From positions 28,959-92,958 of the IMG/VR virus record IMGVR_UViG_3300047372_000605: 64,000 nt of DNA. One strand, written 5' to 3'. Under the pieces are notes generated by a model. It was not told the origin of the DNA. It saw only the letters and a list, made by a program, of their open reading frames with translations, and did not search any database. Source of the DNA: a virus. The first letter of the stretch is position 1. Each line of letters begins with the position of its first letter. Shown piece after piece: positions 2,960 to 60,772 of the stretch. The translations under genes and the position numbers were made by a program.

Positions 2960-4759
2960 ATGCCAAACTGGAAAAAAGTAGCGATATCTGGGTCCAATGT
3001 ATCGCAATTCAATAACGACGGAACTTATATAAAAATGAATGGGAATACCACAAATGGTCTCCTAACATTTGAAGCTGCAGATTGTGCAACAGTAGAATCT
3101 AAAGCAACTTATAATGGTACAACCCAAGAATTAAATAATCATGGTAAAATAGTAGCATTTTCAGGTTCACAATTTTCAACTGCTTCTCCACCTGCTGGGA
3201 ATGGGGCTTTAGTAGGTTTCAAATCCCCACTTGTAGGTTCACCTTGGTCCCCTATTTCAGGTTCAAGAAATCATTCTATATCAGCTACTACTAGATATAC
3301 TAATTTTGGTAGTGGTAATCAATGCGCTGCTACATTAGGTATAACAGCTCAAAAAGGAGTTTCTGATAAAAATGCAACTGTAGAATTAACTAGTATAGCA
3401 AAAGAAGATGGATGCCATGATGCTATATTTTCATTAGCTGTAAAACAAGATGCAGGAGCTGGTGCTGGTTTCCATCCAGTAAGAGAATTATTTAGAATAG
3501 ATGGTAGAGATGAAACTATTTTTCTTTCAGGTTCATTATCTATTAAAACTTCTAAAATGGCAACTACTGCTTCGGCGGGAAATATATTAGTTTATGATAA
3601 TTCCACAGGGCAAATAAAAAAATCATCAGCTACAATTAATACAGGAACTGCAGTAAATAGTGTAAACGGAGCAACTGGAACAGTAACTACAACACAAGTA
3701 TTAAATGGTTCAACTGTTCTTTCAGGTTCATTCCCATCTACTTCACCTGGAGGAGCTTCAGGAAATGTTCAATATAATGATGGGGCTAGTGGGTTTGCTG
3801 GTGAAGCAGCTTTTACATGGAATTCAACTACAGATAAATTAACAGTTAAAAATCCTGGATCAGGTGCTGGTGGTTTAGTAACAAATAATATTGAAGGTGG
3901 TGGAAGTACATTAACTATTAGTGATGGTGGAAATGATCAAAATATGTTATTATGTGTTGGGGATGCAAACATTAATATTTGCAACTATGGAAATAATATG
4001 GTATCAATGGGAGACTCATCAATTTCTATTTGCCAACAGGTAAAGTTACCTGATTTATCCCTTAATGCAGAAACACATTGTATAGTTAAGATACATGCAA
4101 CTACAGGAGAACTTTATTGTGCTGCACCATCTGCAGGAACAACACCAACTTTAGATGCAGTAACTACACAAGGTAATACTACTACAAATGGTATGTGTAT
4201 GACAGGACAAATTTGTGTAGGAGATGGTTCTACTTCTAGCCCTTCTATAGTATTTGCTAGTGATAGTAGTGTTGGATTTTCGAGACCTGGAACTGATTGT
4301 TTAAGAGTAATAGTTGGAACATCGGCACAAAGTTTAGCTACTTTTAATACTGATGGGTTAAATATGTGTAACGGAGCTTTATCAGTGGGTAATATAAGCA
4401 CTTCAACAACAACAGGTAGAATAGATGCTTCAAATGATATAGTAGCATATTCAACTTCAGACTGTAGGTTAAAGAAATATGTTAAACCTATTAAAAATGC
4501 TTTAGATAAAATTGATAAAATTAGAGGTGTAGAATTTGACTGGAAAGTTACTGATGAAAAGATGAAAGAAGAAGTACACTCATTTGAAGGGCATGATATA
4601 GGAGTTATAGCACAAGAGGTAGAAGAAATACTCCCAGAAGTAGTTGCAACAAGGGATAATGGGTATAAAGCAGTTAGATATGAAAAAATAGTTCCATTAT
4701 TAATTCAAGGTATAAAAGAATTAAAAGAAGAAGTAGAAATCATCAAATCTAAAATATAA
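2960..4759 (+). CDS. Tail fibre/spike with C-terminal intramolecular chaperone (Peptidase S74)
   Basis: G/S/T-rich body; C-terminal SDCRLK...GVIAQEVE...VRYEKIVPLLIQGIKEL. Confidence 0.88.
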   Translation: MPNWKKVAISGSNVSQFNNDGTYIKMNGNTTNGLLTFEAADCATVESKATYNGTTQELNNHGKIVAFSGSQFSTASPPAGNGALVGFKSPLVGSPWSPISGSRNHSISATTRYTNFGSGNQCAATLGITAQKGVSDKNATVELTSIAKEDGCHDAIFSLAVKQDAGAGAGFHPVRELFRIDGRDETIFLSGSLSIKTSKMATTASAGNILVYDNSTGQIKKSSATINTGTAVNSVNGATGTVTTTQVLNGSTVLSGSFPSTSPGGASGNVQYNDGASGFAGEAAFTWNSTTDKLTVKNPGSGAGGLVTNNIEGGGSTLTISDGGNDQNMLLCVGDANINICNYGNNMVSMGDSSISICQQVKLPDLSLNAETHCIVKIHATTGELYCAAPSAGTTPTLDAVTTQGNTTTNGMCMTGQICVGDGSTSSPSIVFASDSSVGFSRPGTDCLRVIVGTSAQSLATFNTDGLNMCNGALSVGNISTSTTTGRIDASNDIVAYSTSDCRLKKYVKPIKNALDKIDKIRGVEFDWKVTDEKMKEEVHSFEGHDIGVIAQEVEEILPEVVATRDNGYKAVRYEKIVPLLIQGIKELKEEVEIIKSKI

Positions 4760-12358: not shown

Positions 12359-12443
12359 GGAAAGATGGCAGAGCGGTCGAATGCGCTGGTCTTGAAAACC
12401 AGTTTACTGAAAAGTAACGGGGGTTCGAATCCCTCTCTTTCCG
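12359..12443 (+). tRNA. tRNA-Ser(UGA)
   Basis: GGAAAGA/TCTTTCC acceptor, CTGGT-CTTGAAA-ACCAG anticodon arm, long variable arm, GGTTCGAATCC; CCA not encoded. Confidence 0.93.
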
Positions 12444-12450
12444 CAAAAAT

Positions 12451-12521
12451 TACCGGGTCGTCTAGTGGCAGGACATTTGGTTTTGGTCCAGAGAACGGAG
12501 GTTCGAATCCTTCCCCGGTAA
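12451..12521 (+). tRNA. tRNA-Gln(UUG)
   Basis: TACCGGG/CCCGGTA acceptor, loop TTTTGGT, GGTTCGAATCC. Confidence 0.9.
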
Positions 12522-12530
12522 CTATTAAAT

Positions 12531-12607
<77 letters not shown>

Positions 12608-15967: not shown

Positions 15968-16609
15968 ATGAGTAAACAAAGAACATTAAATGAGCTGAGA
16001 CAAACTAAGGATGCACATTATATTCCAAAGTATGATCCTCAAACAGGAGATAAAAATCCTCATTATAAAGAACTAACAGGTGAAGAACTTGAAGAGATGA
16101 TGAATGAAACAGATGCACCTCCAGGAGTTCAATTTGTAAATGAAGTAGAAATATTTAATGCCACATTTGGTAAACCAAACAACTATGTCCCAACAATCCC
16201 AGAAAAGAAAGAAACAGATTTCGTCTACGACTTTTGTATCGAAGAAATCACAGAATATCAAGAAGCTTGCAAAAACGGAGACATCGTGGAAATTTTGGAT
16301 GCTATTTGCGATATTGCTTATGTTACCTTGGGGAATGCCACTATGTTACATGGCCTTAAAGATAAGATTTGGCCAGCGTATAAAGAAGTCCAGGCGTCAA
16401 ATATGTCTAAGTCTTGCAAAACTGAAGAAGAAGCAGCACAAACTGTCACTCAAAGAGCTAAGGAACAAGGTGAAGAATGCCATTTTGAAAAAGTAGGAGA
16501 TAGATATGTTGTATACAGAACAAGAGACAGAAAGGTTATGAAATCTATTAACTATTTTAGACCAGATTTAAAGCAGTTTTTCACTGAAGAGGAATTAAAA
16601 AATGTTTAA
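15968..16609 (+). CDS. All-alpha NTP pyrophosphohydrolase (MazG/PRA-PH-like)
   Basis: EEITEY...EILDAICDIAYV...SNMSK...KVMKS. Confidence 0.85.
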   Translation: MSKQRTLNELRQTKDAHYIPKYDPQTGDKNPHYKELTGEELEEMMNETDAPPGVQFVNEVEIFNATFGKPNNYVPTIPEKKETDFVYDFCIEEITEYQEACKNGDIVEILDAICDIAYVTLGNATMLHGLKDKIWPAYKEVQASNMSKSCKTEEEAAQTVTQRAKEQGEECHFEKVGDRYVVYRTRDRKVMKSINYFRPDLKQFFTEEELKNV

Positions 16610-18278
16610 AAAAGCATTTGCACGAAGAATAGGAGGAAACAAACATTTAATACATCTTTGGACTGACACAGGTTATGAGAAAGTTGAATGGACAAACTTT
16701 GCCTATAAAGAATGCAGTGAAGCAGATGCTGATTATATAGGTTTAAATGGCGAACCACTAAGAAAGACTAGTAAATGGGGTCCTGATGATTCAGGACTCC
16801 ATTTTCATGACATGAAAGCATATCAAAAATTCTTAATTGAAAAATATGGTACTAATGATGAACCATCTACTACACACAGAGAATTATTTTTTGATATTGA
16901 AACTGAAATGGGTGATGCTTTAACACCTGAATACATTCAAAATGCACCTAAAAAAGTTACATCTATAGCTTGGTATGATAAACAAGTAGATGAATGGGGT
17001 ATATTAATTTTAGATACTAAAAACCAATTAGAACATACTAAAGCTAGAAACAAAGAAATTACACCTTGTAAAACCGAAAGTGATTTACTAGCTAAATTCT
17101 TAGAAAAATTTAGAGAAATCGATCCTGATATTATAATAGGATACAATAGTGATTATTTTGATATACCATACCTATACTACAGAATGTGTAATGTATTAGG
17201 TGAAGATTGGGCTAGACATTTATCTCCTATTGGTTATGTAAGAGAAACACCTTGGTTTAAAGACCAATATATTCAAATAGCAGGTGTTGAATCTCTTGAT
17301 TACATGCGTTTACATAAAAAGTTTAGTTGGAAAGATGAACCATCATGGAAATTAGATGCTATTGGAGAAAAATATGCAGGTATAAATAAAGTTGAATATG
17401 AAGGTAATTTAGATTCTTTATTTGAAAGTGACATAAATAAATTCATCCAATATAACTTTGTTGATGTTGAAATACTAGTTGAATTAGATAAAAAATTAGA
17501 ATATTTAGCTTTAACTAAAAATCTATCACATAAAGGTAAACATAACTATAGTGAGGTATATGCTAATACAAATACCCAAGATGGTGCTATTTCGGCTTAC
17601 TTATTATCCCAAAATATTATCCCACCTGCTAAAGACAAAGACTTAAAAGCAGAAAAAGGATATGCTGGAGGTTATTTATTTTGCCCTAAAGCAGGAATAT
17701 ACAACTATATGTTTGATGAGGATTTAACTTCACTATATCCCTCAATTATTATGTCTCTTAATATAGGTAAAGAAACATTAAAAGCAAGAATCATAGATGC
17801 TGATGATAGAAATAATAGATTAGGATTAAATGATTTAAAAGCTAAAGACCCAGATAGTACTATTATTATTAAAAACCATAAAGGCAAACGAGCTGAAGTT
17901 ACAATAGCTAACCTATTAAAATTTATAGAAGGAAATCAATTTACTATATCAGCTAATGGTACTATGTTTGCTACAAATAGACAATCAGTACTATCAACTA
18001 TACTAGCTAAATGGTTTGGTGAAAGAGTATTATATAAAGGTAAAATGAAAAAAGCATACCAAGCTAAAGATAAAGAAGCAGGAGCTAAATATCATTTACT
18101 ACAATATACAATGAAAATTTTATTAAATAGTTTATATGGTGCAACAGCATTACCTAGTTTTAGATATGGTAATGTTAATTTATCAAAAGCTATAACACTT
18201 TCAGGACAAAGAATTATTCAAGAATCAGCTTTAATAGCAAATAAAAAAATGAACGAGGAGATAAAAAATGTTAAGTAA
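16602..18278 (+). CDS. Family B DNA polymerase, N-terminal part (exonuclease, motifs A and B)
   Basis: FFDIET, GYNSDYFD, YNFVD, DLTSLYPS, KILLNSLYG. Confidence 0.93.
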   Translation: MFKKAFARRIGGNKHLIHLWTDTGYEKVEWTNFAYKECSEADADYIGLNGEPLRKTSKWGPDDSGLHFHDMKAYQKFLIEKYGTNDEPSTTHRELFFDIETEMGDALTPEYIQNAPKKVTSIAWYDKQVDEWGILILDTKNQLEHTKARNKEITPCKTESDLLAKFLEKFREIDPDIIIGYNSDYFDIPYLYYRMCNVLGEDWARHLSPIGYVRETPWFKDQYIQIAGVESLDYMRLHKKFSWKDEPSWKLDAIGEKYAGINKVEYEGNLDSLFESDINKFIQYNFVDVEILVELDKKLEYLALTKNLSHKGKHNYSEVYANTNTQDGAISAYLLSQNIIPPAKDKDLKAEKGYAGGYLFCPKAGIYNYMFDEDLTSLYPSIIMSLNIGKETLKARIIDADDRNNRLGLNDLKAKDPDSTIIIKNHKGKRAEVTIANLLKFIEGNQFTISANGTMFATNRQSVLSTILAKWFGERVLYKGKMKKAYQAKDKEAGAKYHLLQYTMKILLNSLYGATALPSFRYGNVNLSKAITLSGQRIIQESALIANKKMNEEIKNVK

Positions 18279-18531
18279 ACAATCCATAAGAAAAGAACAC
18301 ATTATACTTTTAAATAGAGTAAAAATGTCAAAAGATGAAATCATAGAAATATCTAAAGATTTCACAGAACCTGAAGAACAACGATTTAGAAAAATATTAC
18401 AACAAGGTGGTAAAATTTCTATTCAAGGTAAAAAATTTGAAATAGTAAAAGATTTAAAAGACTATGCTAGAAATAGTAAAGGTGAATATGAAGCTCCAGC
18501 TAAACCTCATAGAAACGAAGACTGGGAATGA
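18268..18531 (+). CDS. 87-aa protein between the two polymerase halves
   Basis: Overlaps both neighbours (ATGA coupling at 18528). Confidence 0.65.
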   Translation: MLSKQSIRKEHIILLNRVKMSKDEIIEISKDFTEPEEQRFRKILQQGGKISIQGKKFEIVKDLKDYARNSKGEYEAPAKPHRNEDWE

Positions 18532-19505
18532 AGCATTTAGAAGACACACCATGGTGGATATGTGATCCTGAAGATACTAACTATTGTGCTTATGTAGACA
18601 CAGATAGTAATTATTTTCATGCTGAACCTTTATTAAGACATAGATTTCCTAATTTTGATGGAATGTCTGATAAGGAAAAGGATACTGAACTAGAAAAAAT
18701 TGCCCTAGAATATCAAGATATTATTACAGACCATTACAATAATGTAGCTAAGGACGTTTTTAATATAAATCAATTTGAATGGTTTGATAAGCCACATTGG
18801 TTAGAAATGAAAACTGAATGTGTAATAAGATCAGCTTATTTTAGAGCAACTAGAAGGTATGCACAATGGATCACTAAACAAGAAGGTGTTGAAAAAGAAA
18901 CACTTGATATTAAAGGTTTAGAGTTCCAAAAATCTAATTTTCCACCTATACTAGGTAAATTCTTTAATGATGTTTTAGTAGACGTTTTAAAAGGTGAAAC
19001 ACAAGATGATATAGATGCTAGAGTAAAAACATTTAAAAAGCAAGTATTAGATGGAACCATACCATTAACAGATTTAGGTAACCCAACATCAGTAAAACAA
19101 ATAGGTAAACATCAAGGCAAACCAGCCAGAAAAGGAGAAATGTTATCAACATTTAATCATGTAGAAAATAAAGTAGGCAGAAAATTAGGTGCACCTGCAG
19201 CAGTAAAAGCAGCTATTAGATATAACGATTTACTTAGATTTTGGAAATTAGATAGCAAATACGAATTAATTACCAATGGTACTAAAATAAAATGGATTTA
19301 TCTTAAAAATAACCCATATCAAATTGAAGAAATAGCATTTCTAGATTATGATATGCCAGAAAAAATTCGTACATTCATTGAGCAGTATGCTGATAGAAAA
19401 AAAGTATTTGAAAGTATTTTATTAAATAAATTAGAGGGATTCTATGGTGATTTAGAATGGAACTTAAACTTAAACCCCTACATTAATCAATTTTTTGACT
19501 TATGA
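18528..19505 (+). CDS. Family B DNA polymerase, C-terminal part (motif C, thumb)
   Basis: YVDTDS, RRYA, IKGLE; C-terminal INQFFDL resembles a clamp-binding motif. Confidence 0.92.
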   Translation: MKHLEDTPWWICDPEDTNYCAYVDTDSNYFHAEPLLRHRFPNFDGMSDKEKDTELEKIALEYQDIITDHYNNVAKDVFNINQFEWFDKPHWLEMKTECVIRSAYFRATRRYAQWITKQEGVEKETLDIKGLEFQKSNFPPILGKFFNDVLVDVLKGETQDDIDARVKTFKKQVLDGTIPLTDLGNPTSVKQIGKHQGKPARKGEMLSTFNHVENKVGRKLGAPAAVKAAIRYNDLLRFWKLDSKYELITNGTKIKWIYLKNNPYQIEEIAFLDYDMPEKIRTFIEQYADRKKVFESILLNKLEGFYGDLEWNLNLNPYINQFFDL

Positions 19506-20242
19506 TAAGTAAAACACAATTACAATCAATAATATCTAAATACCATTTAGGTGAAATAGAACAAATCAAATGGGAAATCGAAGACAACCATTTACAAATA
19601 AATTTTATAGCACCATCAAATATGGTATTAGGATCAGTTAAATGCAACGATTTCCAAATGCAAGATGCAGATTTAGCTATATACAACACAAAAAAATTAG
19701 CTAATTTAATTTCAATATGTAGTGGGGATTTAGTATTAGATTTAGAAAGACAAAGAGAAATAATTACTAAATTAAAAATAGCTGATTTGAACTTTAATTT
19801 AGAATATGCTTTATCAGATCCTTTATTAATCAAAAAAGTAGGTAAAGCTAAACCAGTAGATAGTTGGTATGTTGAACTACAATTAAGTAGTGAAGAAATA
19901 TCTAACATATTAAGAGCTAAAAGCGCTATGTCAGAAGTAGAACAATTTTTAGTTACCACTACAAAAGATTTAGATAATATGGATGTATGTGAACTTATAT
20001 TTGGAGATGAAATAGGTCACAACAATAAAATATCATACCAATTACAAGGTACGATAAATAAAGAATTTATGAAAATAAAATATAACTCTAATATGATGAA
20101 AACTATATTAAATGCAAATAAAGATATGGATGAAGGTACATTCAAAATATCTAATGCAGGTTTAATGTATTTACATTTTACAGATGGTGTTATAGAAAGC
20201 GAATATTACATGGTTCCTACAGAGGACGGTATTATTTCTTAA
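19502..20242 (+). CDS. Sliding clamp (gp45/PCNA-like)
   Basis: 246 aa, directly after polymerase; AIYN..KL, ISNAGLM..F pattern. Confidence 0.7.
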   Translation: MISKTQLQSIISKYHLGEIEQIKWEIEDNHLQINFIAPSNMVLGSVKCNDFQMQDADLAIYNTKKLANLISICSGDLVLDLERQREIITKLKIADLNFNLEYALSDPLLIKKVGKAKPVDSWYVELQLSSEEISNILRAKSAMSEVEQFLVTTTKDLDNMDVCELIFGDEIGHNNKISYQLQGTINKEFMKIKYNSNMMKTILNANKDMDEGTFKISNAGLMYLHFTDGVIESEYYMVPTEDGIIS

Positions 20243-20261
20243 TTTTCATATATTTATAGAT

Positions 20262-20790
20262 GCAAACTTAGGATGCACAAACAGCTCACCAAAATGGGAG
20301 CTTAGTAATTTAATAACAGGGTAGTTTAAACACCCACAAAACTAAATGATATGAGTACATTATTTCACGAACGAACACCGTTCGACATTTTATTCAAAAA
20401 CTTCTTTCAAGCAGAAGGAAAATTTCAACCAACAACATTCGAAAACAAACAACCTCACCCACTAGATATATTCTATAATGATGATGGTCTCAATTTTGAG
20501 ATTGCCTGTACAGGTTTAACTAAAAAAGATATACAATTAAAAATTGATGGAGATCAATTAAATATATCTTATGATAAACCATCAGAAGAAGAATCATATG
20601 AGGGTTATATCTATAAAGGACTAGCTAAAAGGTCTTTTAAACTAGGATATAAAATAGCAGCTAAATTTGATTTATCAAAAATAGAAGCTAAAATGGAAAA
20701 TGGTTTACTCCATTTATTCATCCCAACAGCCGCAGATAAAAAATCAAAAATAGTAACAATAAAATAAAAAAAACTGCATCCTAGGTTTGC
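20262..20790. repeat. 16-bp inverted repeat bracketing hsp20
   Basis: GCAAACTTAGGATGCA (20262-20277) vs TGCATCCTAGGTTTGC (20775-20790); the only mismatch is a G-U pair in RNA. Confidence 0.85.
20351..20767 (+). CDS. Small heat-shock protein (Hsp20)
   Basis: YKGLAKRSF...AKMENGLLHLFIP alpha-crystallin domain. Confidence 0.92.
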   Translation: MSTLFHERTPFDILFKNFFQAEGKFQPTTFENKQPHPLDIFYNDDGLNFEIACTGLTKKDIQLKIDGDQLNISYDKPSEEESYEGYIYKGLAKRSFKLGYKIAAKFDLSKIEAKMENGLLHLFIPTAADKKSKIVTIK

Positions 20791-20814
20791 TTATTAAACT
20801 ATTTTTATTATATT
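20785..20814 (+). promoter_or_regulatory. Promoter variant upstream of groES
   Basis: TTTGC...ATTATATT (spacing 1 nt shorter). Confidence 0.5.
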
Positions 20815-20842
20815 ACCCACAAACATTAAATTAAATTAAGTT

Positions 20843-21208
20843 ATGGAATTAGAAGCATTATTCGATGCCGTTATTGTTAAACCTCAAGAAGAGGAAGAGA
20901 CACAATATGGATCAATAGTAGTACCCGATTTAGGAAAAGACAGAAACGAACATGGAGAAGTAGTTGCTGTGGGTCCTGGAAGACAAGTAGCAGGAATTGG
21001 CTTTGTAGAAACTAATATTAAAGTTGGAGATAAAGTAATTCTACCAACAATAGGTTTTACTAAACTTGAACATAAAGGAGATGAATATTATATCGGTTCT
21101 GAAAATCAAATATTAGCAAGAATAAATAATACAACATCAGTAGAGGATGTTTTAGCAGAAACAGAAGTATCAGAGGAAGATTTTGATGCTCTTAAATCAA
21201 TAGATTAA
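20843..21208 (+). CDS. groES: Co-chaperonin GroES
   Basis: GSIVVPD, GEVVAVGPG, VGDKVI. Confidence 0.92.
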   Translation: MELEALFDAVIVKPQEEEETQYGSIVVPDLGKDRNEHGEVVAVGPGRQVAGIGFVETNIKVGDKVILPTIGFTKLEHKGDEYYIGSENQILARINNTTSVEDVLAETEVSEEDFDALKSID

Positions 21209-21209
21209 G

Positions 21210-22817
21210 ATGAGTAAAATTATAGAATTTGGCCCTGAAGCCAGAAAAAAACTAGTAAAAGGAATAGACCAAATAGCAGATGCTGTAGTATCTACATTAG
21301 GTCCAAATGGTAGGAATGTTGTTATTTCTAAACCAGGCCAAACACCACAATCAACAAAAGATGGTGTAACAGTAGCAAAAAATATTTCATTAGAAGATCC
21401 AACTGAAGAGTTAGGAGTTCAAATGCTTAAACAAGCAGCTATTAAAACCGCAGATAAAGCAGGAGATGGTACAACTACTTCTACTCTATTAGCTAGAGAA
21501 ATGGTTAAAGCAGGTTTATCAGCTTTAGATAGTGGAGCAAATGCTGTTGATATTAAAAGAGGAATTGATAAAGCTGTAGAACAGGTAATTCACCATTTAA
21601 CCCCATTTCAAGAAGATGTCTCATCTCAAGAACAATTAGAGCAAGTAGCTACTATTTCAGCTAATAACGATGAAACTATAGGTAAATTAATTGCTACTGC
21701 AATGGAAAAAGTAGGTAGAGAAGGGGTAGTACATATTGAAGAATCTAAAACAGGTGAAACTTATCTTGAAACCGTAGAGGGTATGCAATTTGATAGAGGT
21801 TATAAATCTCCTTATTTTGTTACTGATAATAATACTATGTCTACTACTTTGAATGATTGTTATGTTTTAATAGCAGATCATACTTTTACCCAAGTAAAAG
21901 AATTATTACCGATATTAGAAAGTGTATCAAATACAAATAAATCCCTTTTAATCATTGCCAAAGACATAGACAATGAAGCATTAGCTACCCTTATTGTAAA
22001 TAAAATGAGAGGTTCATTAAAAGTATGTGCTGTTAAAGCTCCTGAATTTGGAGATAGACAAAAATTAGTTCTAGATGACATAGCTGTTCTAACTGGAGGT
22101 CAAGTATTCAGTAAAGAAAAAGGTATGAAACTAGAAAAGTTTAGTTGGGAATGGTTTGGTGAAGCTAGAGTATCTACTATTACTAAAGAAAAAACTACAA
22201 TTGTAGATGGTAAAGGTTCAGAAGAAGCAATTACTGCTAGAGTAGAAGAATTATCTCAACAAATAGAAAGAGCTGATACACCATTTGCAATGGAAAAGTT
22301 ACAAGATAGAATGTCTAAATTCGTAGGTGGAGTAGCAATTGTTCATGTAGGTGGAAATACTGAAACTGAGATGAATGAAAGAAAAGATAGAGTAGATGAT
22401 GCCCTTAATGCCACAAAAGCAGCTATTGAAGAAGGTATTCTACCAGGAGGAGGAGTTGCAATAGCAAGAGCTACACAGTGGGTAGAATATAATGGTAATG
22501 TAGATTTTAACATTGGAGTAGATATTGTTAAAATAGCATGTCAAAAACCATATGAACAAATCTTAAAAAATGCTGGAATAAATGAAATTCCTGAATTGGC
22601 AGAAGATGGAGAGTGGGAAGGATTTGATATTAGACAAAATAAAATGGTAGACTTTAAAGAAGCGGGTATTATAGATCCATTTAAGGTTACTAGAAGTGCA
22701 TTACAAAATGCTGCATCAATAGCTGGAACTATTCTGTTAACAGAAGCCACAGTTGTTGATAAACCATCAGAAAATACAACACCAGAAATAGATCCATCCA
22801 TGATGGGTATGATGTAA
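21210..22817 (+). CDS. groEL: Chaperonin GroEL
   Basis: TLGPNGRNV, KDGVTVAK, GDGTTT, C-terminal MMGMM. Confidence 0.97.
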   Translation: MSKIIEFGPEARKKLVKGIDQIADAVVSTLGPNGRNVVISKPGQTPQSTKDGVTVAKNISLEDPTEELGVQMLKQAAIKTADKAGDGTTTSTLLAREMVKAGLSALDSGANAVDIKRGIDKAVEQVIHHLTPFQEDVSSQEQLEQVATISANNDETIGKLIATAMEKVGREGVVHIEESKTGETYLETVEGMQFDRGYKSPYFVTDNNTMSTTLNDCYVLIADHTFTQVKELLPILESVSNTNKSLLIIAKDIDNEALATLIVNKMRGSLKVCAVKAPEFGDRQKLVLDDIAVLTGGQVFSKEKGMKLEKFSWEWFGEARVSTITKEKTTIVDGKGSEEAITARVEELSQQIERADTPFAMEKLQDRMSKFVGGVAIVHVGGNTETEMNERKDRVDDALNATKAAIEEGILPGGGVAIARATQWVEYNGNVDFNIGVDIVKIACQKPYEQILKNAGINEIPELAEDGEWEGFDIRQNKMVDFKEAGIIDPFKVTRSALQNAASIAGTILLTEATVVDKPSENTTPEIDPSMMGMM

Positions 22818-22818
22818 T

Positions 22819-23082
22819 ATGAAAACAGAAGTTATAGAAAGAAATGAGTTAATAGCTACTAGAGTTCCACCTGGAGACAGATGGAATCTAGTAGATGACT
22901 CAAAAAAAGTTATTCACAAAAGTTTAACAGATGCTTTGGAAGCCTACCTAGGAGTTACTAACTTTAAGGGTGAGTATAGATTAGATCCTATTGGGAGTAA
23001 ATTATATGCTATTAAAACTTCTGAAGAAGAGGTTAAACCTGAACCAATAAAGAAGTATAACATTTATGGAGATGAATATTAA
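22819..23082 (+). CDS. Hypothetical protein
   Basis: 87-aa ORF. Confidence 0.6.
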   Translation: MKTEVIERNELIATRVPPGDRWNLVDDSKKVIHKSLTDALEAYLGVTNFKGEYRLDPIGSKLYAIKTSEEEVKPEPIKKYNIYGDEY

Positions 23083-23416
23083 AATTGATGAGTCCTAAAT
23101 TACCTAAAAAACAACGCTTATGGAAAATTTAGATATAATTATAGGAACCCTGATTGGATCAGGTTTAACTACTTTAGTGGCATTTTTTATTACTAGGGTT
23201 TCAAATCGATTCAAACAGATAAATCAAGATTTACATGATGTAAATCAAGAACAATCAGCTCAATTGAATGAGATGTACGAAAGTACTTCAAAAGAAATTG
23301 AGAATTTACATAGAGAACTTGATTCTCAAATTAATAAACTAGAATCTAGATTGGTAAAACAATTTAAAGATTATAATTACAATAAATAATTAACCAATTT
23401 AGGACTCTCAATTTTA
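23080..23416. repeat. 21-bp inverted repeat (1-nt bulge) bracketing gene 23120-23389
   Basis: TAAAATTGA-t-GAGTCCTAAATT (23080-23101) vs AATTTAGGACTCTCAATTTTA (23396-23416). Confidence 0.88.
23120..23389 (+). CDS. Single-TM + coiled-coil protein
   Basis: N-terminal hydrophobic helix followed by a heptad-rich tail. Confidence 0.65.
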   Translation: MENLDIIIGTLIGSGLTTLVAFFITRVSNRFKQINQDLHDVNQEQSAQLNEMYESTSKEIENLHRELDSQINKLESRLVKQFKDYNYNK

Positions 23417-24339
23417 TGAAAGAACATTCATTATTAGTAGAAAAATATAGATCAAAAGATTTAACAGAGTATGTAGGAAATGAACACATTAAAACACAAA
23501 TACAAAAATATCTAGACCAAGATGATATTCAAAACTTTATATTCTATGGTCCTGCTGGTACTGGAAAAACAACCCTTGCTAAACTTATTGTTAATAATCT
23601 GGAGTGTGACTACCTTTACATCAACGCTTCTGATGAACGAGGTATCGAAACTATTAGGGATAAAGTCACAAGTTTCTCAAGCACTATATCGTTTAAAAAG
23701 ATTAAAGTTGTCATCCTTGATGAGGCGGATTTTCTCACCATCCAAGCACAAGCATCTCTAAGAAATACAATTGAAACGTTTTCAAGAACCACACGTTTCA
23801 TCCTCACTTGTAATTTTATAGAGCGTATTATAGATCCGCTTCAATCAAGGTGTCAAACATTAAAAATAGTACCACCAAGCAAAAAAGAAGTAGCAAAACA
23901 TATAAAAGGGATACTAGACAAAGAACAAACAAAGTTCAAAATTGAAGCTCTTGTTAACATAGTTAATAAACATCATCCGGATATACGAAAAATGTTAAAC
24001 ACTATTCAGTTATCAACACAAAATAATGAATTAGTATTAGATGAATCTATTTTAGTATCATCCAATTATATTAAACAAATTATAGAAGAACTAAAACAGA
24101 AAAAAACCGATTTTAGAAAACTAAGGCAAATAATAGCCGATTCTCAAGTACGTGATTTTGAAGAATTATATAGAGCATTATTTGATCATGCCTCCGAATA
24201 TGCCATTGGTAGAGAAGGAAGTGTAGCCATAATTTTAAATGAGCATCAATATCATTCTAACTTTCGTATTGATAAGGAAGTCAATATAGCGAGTGCATTA
24301 GCCAAAATAATTGAAATAAAAAAACCTCAAGTAATATAA
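23416..24339 (+). CDS. Clamp loader ATPase (gp44/RFC-like)
   Basis: VEKYR, GPAGTGKT, NASDERGI, ILDEAD, SRC. Confidence 0.93.
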   Translation: MKEHSLLVEKYRSKDLTEYVGNEHIKTQIQKYLDQDDIQNFIFYGPAGTGKTTLAKLIVNNLECDYLYINASDERGIETIRDKVTSFSSTISFKKIKVVILDEADFLTIQAQASLRNTIETFSRTTRFILTCNFIERIIDPLQSRCQTLKIVPPSKKEVAKHIKGILDKEQTKFKIEALVNIVNKHHPDIRKMLNTIQLSTQNNELVLDESILVSSNYIKQIIEELKQKKTDFRKLRQIIADSQVRDFEELYRALFDHASEYAIGREGSVAIILNEHQYHSNFRIDKEVNIASALAKIIEIKKPQVI

Positions 24340-24882
24340 ATGGATTTTTATTATCAAATAGGTCCTGTTATAACAACTACACCATGGATAACCCCTCCTC
24401 CATTAGATAAAGTAAATGATTGGTGGAATGATTTTTCTAAAAATAGTTTTGAAGACTATAATGTATGGATAGGAGGAAAATATGTTATTGATCCAGATAA
24501 TACTAATGACGTAGATATAATACTAACAGGACCTGTCTATGATTATATTAGATTATTTAACTTATTTAAAAATGCAACAGAATTAGGATTCAAAAACCAA
24601 ATACTAATAGACATATGTCATTATGATAGTATAGATTTTTTTAAATATCCTAGGAATAAAGATTTTATAAGGTATCATTTAAGGACAAAATTAAGTGGGA
24701 AAGAAATTAAAAAAATAGATGGTAAAACTGTTTTAGAAAATGAATCTACAACATCACTATTAAACCACAATATTCCAAAGGAATTAGCAGTTAATTTAAT
24801 TAAATTTCCTATGGAAAAACAAATAGAAGATAGTAGGATATATGATCCTATATTATTAAATAGAAAAAAAATAAATAAATGA
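24340..24882 (+). CDS. Putative Pol-beta-family nucleotidyltransferase
   Basis: WIGG-x-NDVDII motif and a later IDI. Confidence 0.5.
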   Translation: MDFYYQIGPVITTTPWITPPPLDKVNDWWNDFSKNSFEDYNVWIGGKYVIDPDNTNDVDIILTGPVYDYIRLFNLFKNATELGFKNQILIDICHYDSIDFFKYPRNKDFIRYHLRTKLSGKEIKKIDGKTVLENESTTSLLNHNIPKELAVNLIKFPMEKQIEDSRIYDPILLNRKKINK

Positions 24883-25124
24883 AAAATCCACAACAACAAG
24901 GAATGAATATTGACTTTAAAAACACAACCTCAATTGAAGGATTCGATGGAGGTTTATTATTTGGTCAAGCATTTGTATTAAGAAAAGTATCAAAATTCGT
25001 AGCAGGAACAGATGAAGATGCAATGCTTCCAATACCTGTATTTTATGATTTAGAGACTAAAAAAATAATAGCTGATTCTTTACCAAAAGAAATTAGAGAA
25101 GATTATAAAGATATTACGATATGA
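24879..25124 (+). CDS. Hypothetical protein
   Basis: 81-aa ORF. Confidence 0.6.
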   Translation: MKNPQQQGMNIDFKNTTSIEGFDGGLLFGQAFVLRKVSKFVAGTDEDAMLPIPVFYDLETKKIIADSLPKEIREDYKDITI

Positions 25125-58012: not shown

Positions 58013-59306
58013 ATGTTAAGTAAAGAAAATATAGAAAAGTTAGTTTTAAGTTGGAATAGTAAATCTGAACACGATTGGGAATTATGTTGTGCTATAAATT
58101 CAGAAAACCCAGTTATTACTTGGGATGAATATTTTGAAATAAATAGAAGATATGCTGCATTTGAGATTGCATTTGAAAAATTAGGAGTTAAATTTATATA
58201 AAATAATACCCCCTTCCGATAAAAGCCCGAAAGGGCTTTTGGGGGCCAAAAATAAAGGTTATGACAAATTTAGAAAAAGCTCAAAATATATTTAATAGTT
58301 TTAAAAGTAAAAACTATACTAGTGAATTAAAAGCAGATACTGCTATTCAATTAGCTCAAAAGGAAGCTAATGAAGTAGGTGTTGGTGTAGAATTTAAAAA
58401 ATTAATTATTCAAGATTTATTAAAATAAAAATTATGAAAGAAGTATTTATCAAAATAAAATATAAGTTAAAAAAATTAAGCCCAACTGGGAGAGAAATGT
58501 TTATAGAGGATTTATTAGAGTTTATTAAAAATTATTAAAATAAAGGTTATGAGATTAAAATTTGATACATTATTAAAAGTTCAAGATTATTATGGATCAT
58601 CTGATTTCCAGGTTGAGGCAAGATATGATAAATTTGATGGTGAAGAATATATTATGTTTAGATTTGGCTATTGGGCTGAAGTAGATTTGATAAAATTAAA
58701 AGAAATATTTAACCCATTAGGTTATGAAGTTGAAGCGAGTGAATTTGAAGATGATGAGTGTGGTTGGTTGTATAGTTATAATATTAAAAGTATAACATTA
58801 TGAGTAATTTAGTAAATGATGAATTAATGGAAAACTTGTTTGAAATGTTTATTGAAGCAGGTTATACAGATAAAGAAGCTGAAATAGCAGTTTTAGAAGC
58901 AATAAGTGCAAAAGGATTATAATATGAGAAATAAAAAAAGATACGCAGTAGTAATAGACACTTATGTCTATGCAGATAACGATTATATGGCTAGAAAAAT
59001 GGCTCATAATCTTAAAAGAAACATAAATGGTGACCATACAAGAGTAATAGACATTTATGAGCAGCCATTTGCAGGTATAAAAACTAGATCATTAGAAGAT
59101 CTTACTGAACCTACAATATCAACATCTAAATGGACTGATAAAGATCCCTTACCATTTTGATAGTAGTAATGAAAACAACAATTGACTATCTAGTGTCAAA
59201 TCAAATGGCAGTAGAATTAGATCAATTAATGGGTCATAATTTACCTTGGCAACAAGCTTCAACAAAAGATGGTGTAAATTATTTCAAATTAGATGAAGAG
59301 CTGTAA
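58013..59306 (+). other. Series of small hypothetical genes (58013, 58261, 58434, 58549, 58800, 58924, 59169)
   Basis: Short ORFs, several with the TAAAGGTT-ATG start. Confidence 0.55.
58209..58246 (+). terminator. GAAA-tetraloop hairpin element, copy 1 (terminator or processing site)
   Basis: CCCCC-ttccgat-AAAAGCCC-GAAA-GGGCTTTT-GGGGG. Confidence 0.6.
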
Positions 59307-60632: not shown

Positions 60633-60656
60633 AGGTTTAACTACAACATAACCAAT

Positions 60657-60691
60657 CCTCAAGATTCTAGCCCGAAAGGGCTCTTGGGGGC
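60657..60691 (+). terminator. GAAA-tetraloop hairpin element, copy 2
   Basis: CCTCAAG-attct-AGCCC-GAAA-GGGCT-CTTGGGG. Confidence 0.6.
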
Positions 60692-60714
60692 TGTAAAAAA
60701 CAATTGTCAAAATA

Positions 60715-60744
60715 TTTGGCTACCACAGATAGGGTTCGTATATT
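60715..60744 (+). promoter_or_regulatory. TTG-N20-TATATT promoter
   Basis: TTTGGCTACCACAGATAGGGTTCGTATATT; leader identical to that after 59477. Confidence 0.82.
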
Positions 60745-60772
60745 CACATCGTAAGTTAAAAAAATAAAGGTT

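Follow-up and report, generated by a model that had tools for sequence, protein, structure and literature searches.

Introduction

Long-range pairing in bacterial mRNAs has been recognised as common only recently, and to our knowledge very few such pairings have evolutionary support. In phage T7, ribonuclease III (RNase III) cuts the polycistronic early mRNA into single-gene mRNAs and the remaining stems stabilise the products, and in the RNA phage MS2 it is well established that distant pairing masks a start site until upstream translation opens it. In Staphylococcus aureus, a pairing within the icaR mRNA reportedly covers the ribosome-binding site. This pairing joins the 3′ untranslated region (UTR) of the mRNA to its own 5′ UTR and controls icaR translation (PMC3868564). 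The substrates of Bacillus subtilis RNase III include intramolecular duplexes of 10–36 bp with as much as 505 nt between their strands (PMC11780869). Here we describe two inverted repeats, IR1 and IR2, in a 64,000-nt stretch of viral DNA (hereafter the window; bases 28959–92958 of the single 92,958-bp viral contig IMGVR_UViG_3300047372_000605), of which one surrounds the gene hsp20 and the other an open reading frame (ORF) of 89 amino acids (aa). On comparative sequence evidence, both repeats are sense-strand RNA helices under selection, enclosing whole genes in loops of 293 or 497 nt.

The long-range RNase III targets of B. subtilis and the stems of 16S and 23S ribosomal RNA (rRNA) resemble these helices in several respects: a duplex of about 14–27 bp closes off a functional unit by joining stretches of one transcript that lie hundreds of nucleotides from each other, the helix accommodates G-U pairs and internal loops, and the spacings of 293 and 497 nt fall within the range of up to 505 nt (PMC11780869). 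The duplexes predicted here, with 16 bp in IR1, 21 bp and one bulge in IR2 and a median length of 25 bp in the hsp20 relatives, fall within the size range of long-range RNase III stems. Unlike those stems, however, they bracket one protein-coding gene from leader to trailer, they belong to a phage and form a portable, conserved module, and cleavage is putative. As in icaR, the 3′ UTR pairs with the 5′ UTR of one mRNA, but arm 1 ends 18–74 nt before the ATG and leaves the start of the enclosed gene free, so that the 3′ UTR does not lie on its own ribosome-binding region. The RNase III sites of T7 are likewise double-stranded elements between phage genes, although they are local hairpins rather than gene-spanning helices. 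IR2 also recalls the masked replicase start of MS2, in that a downstream start is paired with a distant upstream segment which ribosomes would open; the MS2 partner lies inside a translated gene, whereas that of IR2 begins on a stop codon and the helix spans a whole inserted gene, and the comparison is inapplicable to hsp20. The long-range helix does not resemble an RNA thermometer of the ROSE or fourU type, since the start region is untouched and there is no Rfam match. The arrangement is a variant of long-range 5′/3′ UTR pairing, new in form.

Results

Two helices, each around a single gene

All features are given in window coordinates and lie on the plus strand, which carries all genes of the contig. 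IR1 pairs 20262–20277 with 20775–20790 through 16 pairs, the sole non-Watson-Crick pair being U20268-G20784. A first-pass annotation of the window had described a 16-bp repeat around hsp20 with one G-U-compatible mismatch, and its coordinates and pairing are borne out exactly. The enclosed gene, hsp20, encodes 138 aa (20351–20767; Pfam HSP20, E = 3.7e-12; PHROG 432), and the 3′ arm begins 7 nt past its stop codon.

IR2 has 9 + 12 bp, in which 23080–23088 and 23090–23101 pair with 23416–23408 and 23407–23396, respectively, leaving T23089 bulged. Its 5′ arm (23080–23101) thus comprises an outer block, the bulge and an inner block, and its first three bases are the TAA of an upstream ORF of 87 aa and unassigned function (22819–23082). 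The 3′ arm (23396–23416; inner block 23396–23407, outer block 23408–23416) ends on the A of the ATG of the clamp-loader large subunit (23416–24339; PHROG 168, E = 7.5e-75), the initiation region of which lies within the outer block; U23080 of the stop codon is therefore paired with A23416 of the start codon. This agrees with the first-pass description of a 21-bp repeat with one bulge, running from the upstream TAA to the A of the clamp-loader ATG, and its coordinates were confirmed. The enclosed 89-aa ORF (23120–23389) encodes a protein with an N-terminal transmembrane segment and a coiled coil, for which Pfam and PHROG matches are weak. No promoter lies ahead of arm 1 of IR2 in the window.

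Both duplexes contain a core AAyTTAGGA/TCCTA, with the strands swapped between IR1 and IR2, as the first reading of the sequence had noted. Its UAGG/CCUA portion pairs 20269–20272 with 20780–20783 and 23094–23097 with 23400–23403. The TTAGGA/TCCTAA core is not enriched in the non-coding DNA of the genome and forms no repeat family there.

The hsp20 helix is conserved and covaries

A profile scan returned 80 of 513 related IMG/VR hsp20 loci, giving 67 distinct flank pairs. The CCTA anchor was present in 66 of these, and all 66 form a leader/trailer duplex (median 25 bp, –30.6 kcal/mol). In a big hsp20 family, an internal loop divides the helix into an inner block of 11–13 bp and an outer, AU-rich one of 10–14 bp. 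Here arm 2 is nearly fixed and arm 1 varies at five positions, all of them by a transition that keeps the pair (G/A opposite U; C/U opposite G); no variation occurs where a transition would disrupt pairing. The outer block carries compensatory transversions and matched one-pair deletions. When the structure of one member was imposed on 54 distinct flank pairs of this family, 88% of cells were paired, compared with 35–52% when the partner columns were slid, and none of 500 row shuffles reached the observed value.

RNAalifold, applied to 18 whole units with no structure supplied, returned a consensus fold closed by the inner block, with 196 of 198 cells paired, three pairs compensatory and five with wobble changes. 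On a mixed alignment of both hsp20 helix types the helix was missed because MAFFT had put the two arm types in different columns, and it was recovered when the big family was aligned alone. The helix of the window type differs from that of the big family on both sides of at least four pairs. The four central UAGG/CCUA pairs are invariant in the 66 CCTA-anchored flank pairs and adjacent pairs covary; only the UAGG half of this result is independent, because the CCUA half was fixed by selecting flank pairs for CCTA.

In close relatives of the window a core of 12–13 bp of IR1 is kept and the inner end decays uncompensated. At loci (related loci carry L numbers) whose hsp20 protein is 51% identical, the arms are 91–94% identical as against 57–58% for the coding DNA. 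L022 and L018 have an extra A in arm 1 with a matching extra T in arm 2.

IR2 travels with its gene

About 25 loci with the 89-aa gene were collected from IMG/VR and JGI scans, and 18 distinct sequences were scored. Across these, 98.7% of cells are paired and 15 of the 21 pairs are invariant; one pair switches between G-C (13 sequences) and A-U (three), and three further pairs show a one-sided change that yields G-U each time. The bulge is shifted by one base in L043 and L044 with the helix retained, and between these loci and the window the arms are 88–91% identical, compared with 56% for the leader spacer and 66–68% for the coding sequence.

The arms are retained with the gene beside unrelated upstream sequence (L031, L043), and also where the downstream gene differs (L035, L043), in which case that gene starts 4–6 nt past the helix. 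They persist in the L020 group, in which a promoter-like box and a new leader have been inserted between arm 2 and the clamp-loader ATG; in L031, a promoter-like box stands just ahead of arm 1 of the 89-aa gene. To judge from these loci, the pairing has been shown to travel with the enclosed gene into different genomic contexts.

On sequence grounds, the strongest point for IR2 in relatives is the bracket in L025. The protein encoded there is 30% identical to the 89-aa protein and clearly homologous, but its gene is bracketed by an unrelated repeat of 14 pairs including one G-U (3944–3957 / 4291–4304), from which the UAGG/CCUA core is absent. One arm overlaps the upstream coding region; the 3′ arm is followed by TTTTT, and a tRNA-like sequence rather than an ORF lies after it. 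As a rough estimate rather than a computed value, two given 50-nt flanks would form a duplex of this kind with a probability of about 0.005. A scan for relatives of the L025 protein returned L025 itself only. A second long-range non-coding repeat occurs in the same locus (L025:583–1775), with about 16 bp including one G-U (–21.6 kcal/mol) and arms 1176 nt apart around a 186-aa ORF.

Conservation and covariation of the arms in relatives, the check named beforehand in the first-pass annotation, were thus found for both IR1 and IR2. Its proposal of RNA duplexes that loop out whole genes is backed by the 98.7% of paired cells in IR2, by the 196 of 198 in the inner hsp20 helix and by changes, either compensatory or G-U/A-U and C-G/U-G toggles, that suit sense-strand RNA alone; the roles that it suggested for the duplexes, such as RNase III or mini-III cleavage, circular mRNA or stop-to-start juxtaposition, are hypothetical. 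The direction of the changes also speaks to which nucleic acid is paired. In an antisense transcript each G-U pair would become an A-C mismatch, which speaks against such a transcript, and a bias to G-T brings no gain for a DNA cruciform.

The place where the 87-aa ORF meets the clamp loader (23065–23082 / 23416; loci L136–L190) is hypervariable among relatives. In its commonest state it lacks the cassette, with an 11-nt overlap of the two genes (ATGAGTACTAA); elsewhere it holds the repeat-bounded cassette, another gene or a promoter-like insert. That the cassette is present in some contigs and absent from others shows that a module has been gained or lost, but does not implicate the arms in this. 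In L040 (positions 1–700), the 5′ part of the 89-aa ORF is joined to a second copy of the 3′ end of the upstream ORF, directly followed by the clamp loader; the contig is a natural recombinant or else a chimera produced when cassette-bearing and cassette-free variants were assembled together.

The 89-aa protein belongs to a family with 91 protein clusters among relatives, from marine metagenomes throughout. The ORF begins with 110 nt (23120–23229) that are unusually conserved: DNA identity in the most distant pair is 86–87% there as against 52–55% in the rest, with hardly any synonymous change. A third repeat in this region (23027–23048 / 23153–23174, –26.7 kcal/mol) has both arms in coding sequence, from the end of the 87-aa ORF to the start of the 89-aa ORF. 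We treated it as chance, which is probable because synonymous changes in one arm break pairs without compensation.

Background of inverted repeats

All inverted repeats spaced 40–2500 nt in the 93-kb genome were ranked by duplex energy. IR1 came 4th and IR2 9th, and the remaining top repeats were coding/coding. Among repeats with both arms in non-coding DNA, which makes up 7% of the genome, IR1 and IR2 (–27.3 and –24.9 kcal/mol) are followed by one of –15.2 kcal/mol; the non-coding position of the arms is what is unusual within one genome. When the flanks of each gene were compared with permuted flank combinations, the two genes ranked 1st and 3rd of 129, each in the tail of about 1% of the null. 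Because coding/coding repeats reach similar energies and the tail is only about 1%, a single genome is insufficient as proof.

A wider background comes from 229 kb of flanking DNA from 72 related loci, where the only non-coding/non-coding repeats at or below –20 kcal/mol were those of hsp20 (39 vs 0). Each arm sequence occurs only at its own locus, and when mismatches are allowed the counts are the same as in shuffled sequence. In folds of the full units, both the minimum-energy and the centroid structure are closed by the long-range helix (z = –6.6 and –5.5 vs shuffles). An Rfam search found three tRNAs only in the window, and nothing credible in 20150–23500 at E values up to 5.

Design of the leaders and trailers

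IR2 and the helix of the big hsp20 family are built alike: a bulge or internal loop separates about 12 bp of inner block from an outer block rich in A and U, and the whole makes about two helical turns. Arm 2 begins 5–17 nt past the stop codon, and arm 1 ends 72–74 nt (IR1), 18 nt (IR2) or 46–57 nt (big hsp20 family) before the ATG. The helix thus lies just outside the expected footprints of initiating and terminating ribosomes and need not disturb translation of the enclosed gene.

At hsp20, a promoter-like box stands 1–6 nt ahead of arm 1 in both helix families, so the predicted transcript start falls within the first bases of the helix. In the window this box (TATTTATA, 20251–20258) is 3 nt upstream of arm 1, which accordingly lies at, or a few nucleotides from, the predicted 5′ end of the hsp20 mRNA. 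The box belongs to a recurrent intergenic motif of the TATTTATAA type and is conserved in relatives despite a different upstream gene (L009/L010); in the big hsp20 family, TATGTATAAT occupies the same position. At the other end, the terminal TTTG of the 3′ arm overlaps the upstream element of a probable groES promoter-like site (20786–20816; TTTG, 19 nt, TATATT), which matches a recurrent intergenic motif TTTGG...TTCGTATATT and is conserved in relatives. The groES start is 52 nt past arm 2.

The hsp20 leader also contains two local hairpins. The one at 20283–20302, with a 5-bp stem and the loop ACCAAAATGG, is conserved in loci of the window type and the L022 type: its four inner pairs are kept in 9/9 scorable rows (the misaligned L012 being gapped) and the outer pair in 9/10, and the changes are G-U/A-U and C-G/U-G. 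The other (20319–20335), about 16 nt 5′ of the hsp20 ATG, was predicted by RNAalifold with compensatory changes across both hsp20 families. No ordinary local terminator follows hsp20 or the 89-aa gene. A generic sigma-70 promoter scan was uninformative here, as sites were no more frequent than in shuffled sequence.

Genomic setting

The contig has a G+C content of 29.6% and is 59% complete by CheckV; its largest relatives are about 160 kb, and all relatives found are of marine metagenome origin. DNA-level matches to named phages were confined to GroEL, and a search of the annotated phage collection found this hsp20 in no named phage. The replication module runs in the order DNA-polymerase pieces, an unknown ORF, hsp20, groES, groEL, the 87-aa ORF, the 89-aa ORF and the clamp loader. 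The DNA polymerase in 16602–19505 appears to be split: the ORF at 18528–19505 matches just the C-terminal third of phage DNA-polymerase profiles, in a profile scan of this ORF, and an 87-aa ORF sits between it and the 558-aa ORF upstream.

Elsewhere in the window, three tRNA genes are clustered at 12359–12607. In the intergenic regions of 39664–62000, a promoter-like motif (TTTGG, about 16 nt, TTCGTATATTCAC) recurs ahead of many short genes and a second motif, TATTTATAATAAAT, ahead of others, and canonical terminator hairpins are few (for example in 58202–58260 and 60633–60772).

Discussion

Our tentatively preferred reading, by analogy with the stems that flank rRNAs, is that each helix would be a processing and stabilising stem, at which an RNase III-type cut could give a single-gene mRNA in panhandle form. 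The GC-richer inner block of about 12 bp, the bulge or internal loop and the AU-rich outer block of about 9–14 bp would together make about two turns, a size that the host RNase III should accept. Cleavage in the outer part would free the single-gene mRNA from longer read-through transcripts, after which the inner block would hold both ends as a panhandle, shielded from attack at either end; transcripts from the gene's own promoter-like box would already have their 5′ end within the helix. At IR2, where the outer block covers the clamp-loader start, that start would be uncovered either by cleavage or by ribosomes that unwind the helix as they reach the end of the upstream ORF. Such a role is made plausible by the duplex lengths and spacings that B. 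subtilis RNase III accepts, by the position of the helices outside the expected ribosome footprints and by the lack of a local terminator after either gene.

Several observations weigh against this reading. IR1 has only 16 bp in the window, 12–13 of them firmly conserved, and the L025 helix has 14 bp, both of which are short for an RNase III of the E. coli type. The 93-kb, 59%-complete phage fragment gave no match to Ribonucleas_3_3 or dsrm, while control genomes including Bacteroides did. After cleavage of IR2, only a few nucleotides of leader would remain on the mRNA of the essential clamp loader. Compensatory events in IR2 are few, amounting to one pair and possibly a single event. Finally, the invariance of the UAGG/CCUA core may point to a sequence-specific partner, and RNase III does not explain it.

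The same RNA helix could instead act without cleavage, as a clamp that pairs the 5′-terminal nucleotides with the 3′ trailer and either protects the ends or keeps terminating ribosomes near the leader, in a closed-loop mRNA. 5′-terminal stems stabilise bacterial mRNAs, and such a role suits the predicted +1 within the helix in both hsp20 families, the box ahead of arm 1 at the 89-aa gene of L031, and a position outside the ribosome footprints that lets the helix persist during translation. It suits IR2 in the window less well, as arm 1 there has no promoter ahead and is internal to a longer transcript, so that it cannot protect a 5′ end without processing; moreover, the 3′ end after arm 2 would be undefined, with no terminator and with a promoter or a gene start following. 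We hold the clamp to be a possible but doubtful role. A long-range translational mask is unlikely. In that case the 3′ arm would hide the start of the next gene, and ribosomes ending the upstream ORF would melt it, restoring the coupling of neighbours across the inserted gene, much as in MS2; the overlap of the upstream ORF and the clamp loader in the commonest, cassette-free relatives, the pairing of the stop U23080 with the start A23416, and the different gene placed 4–6 nt past the helix in L035 and L043 all accord with it. But masking, including any juxtaposition of stop and start, misfits hsp20, where arm 1 follows a promoter-like box and groES lies 52 nt downstream behind its own promoter-like site. 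The L020 group, moreover, keeps the helix despite a promoter and a new leader before the clamp-loader ATG, and in L025 arm 2 is followed by the tRNA-like sequence and no ORF. Still less probable is an intrinsic terminator with a gene-sized loop, insulating a promoter–gene–terminator module. The 3′ arm of IR2 is U-rich at or past its end and TTTTT follows in L025, the 5′ arm opens with A-rich sequence, a trait of bidirectional terminators, a promoter-like site comes directly after arm 2 at hsp20, and neither gene is followed by an ordinary terminator. The loops, however, measure 293 and 497 nt rather than a few nucleotides, and terminators with loops this long are not known to us. A U-tract is present in L025 and partly in IR2 but does not follow the inner block of the big hsp20 family, and efficient termination after IR2 in the window would be harmful to a clamp loader without its own promoter.

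Two further explanations do without a selected RNA. The arms might serve a DNA cassette that is mobile, invertible or excisable, whether as its recombination sites or as its terminal inverted repeats, as suggested by the coincidence of the IR2 arms with the exact limits of cassette homology in different contexts, by the existence of cassette-free junctions, and by filled and empty sites that differ in L035 roughly as a TA duplication predicts. The TA at both ends of IR2 fits the L035 context but belongs to the palindrome, and the clamp-loader context is not a clean fit. The arms are single-copy, unlike those of a transposon or a miniature inverted-repeat transposable element; about 25 and about 90 related loci include no orientation variant such as an invertible segment would give; and one-sided changes are biased to G-U on the sense strand. 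In addition, arm 1 at hsp20 does not take in the conserved promoter-like box, the arms at L025 have unrelated sequences and one of them is inside the upstream coding region, and Pfam and PHROG searches found no recombinase or transposase among the proteins of 18528–25124. We consider such an origin very improbable, and the invertible or excisable cassette that the first-pass annotation had offered as its alternative is not favoured, given single-copy arms, a gene that is never inverted, a box outside arm 1 and the unrelated arms of L025. That the complementarity arose by chance in an AT-rich genome is practically negligible: coding/coding repeats of similar energy do occur and flank permutation gives only about 1% per gene, but conservation and covariation extend over many independent contigs, and the background in the 229 kb of related flanks is zero.

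Beyond the processing and stabilising stem that we tentatively prefer, one may speculate that the pairing is a portable insulation device. The accessory gene's own leader and trailer would close it off and give a defined, protected mRNA wherever the module lands, and the module could sit between translationally coupled essential genes without uncoupling them, the upstream stop being placed against the downstream start. We regard this as a conceivable rather than a probable function; if true, it would give phages a means of accommodating inserted genes that has not been described before.

A whole protein-coding gene enclosed by a covarying helix thus occurs in hundreds of uncultured marine phage contigs and in two unrelated gene families. 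Such gene-spanning structures are missed by local fold scans and Rfam but are detectable by pairing the flanks of orthologous genes. They provide a recognisable RNA signature for annotating accessory-gene modules of phages, and a natural system for asking whether the helix serves processing, end protection, coupling or insulation.

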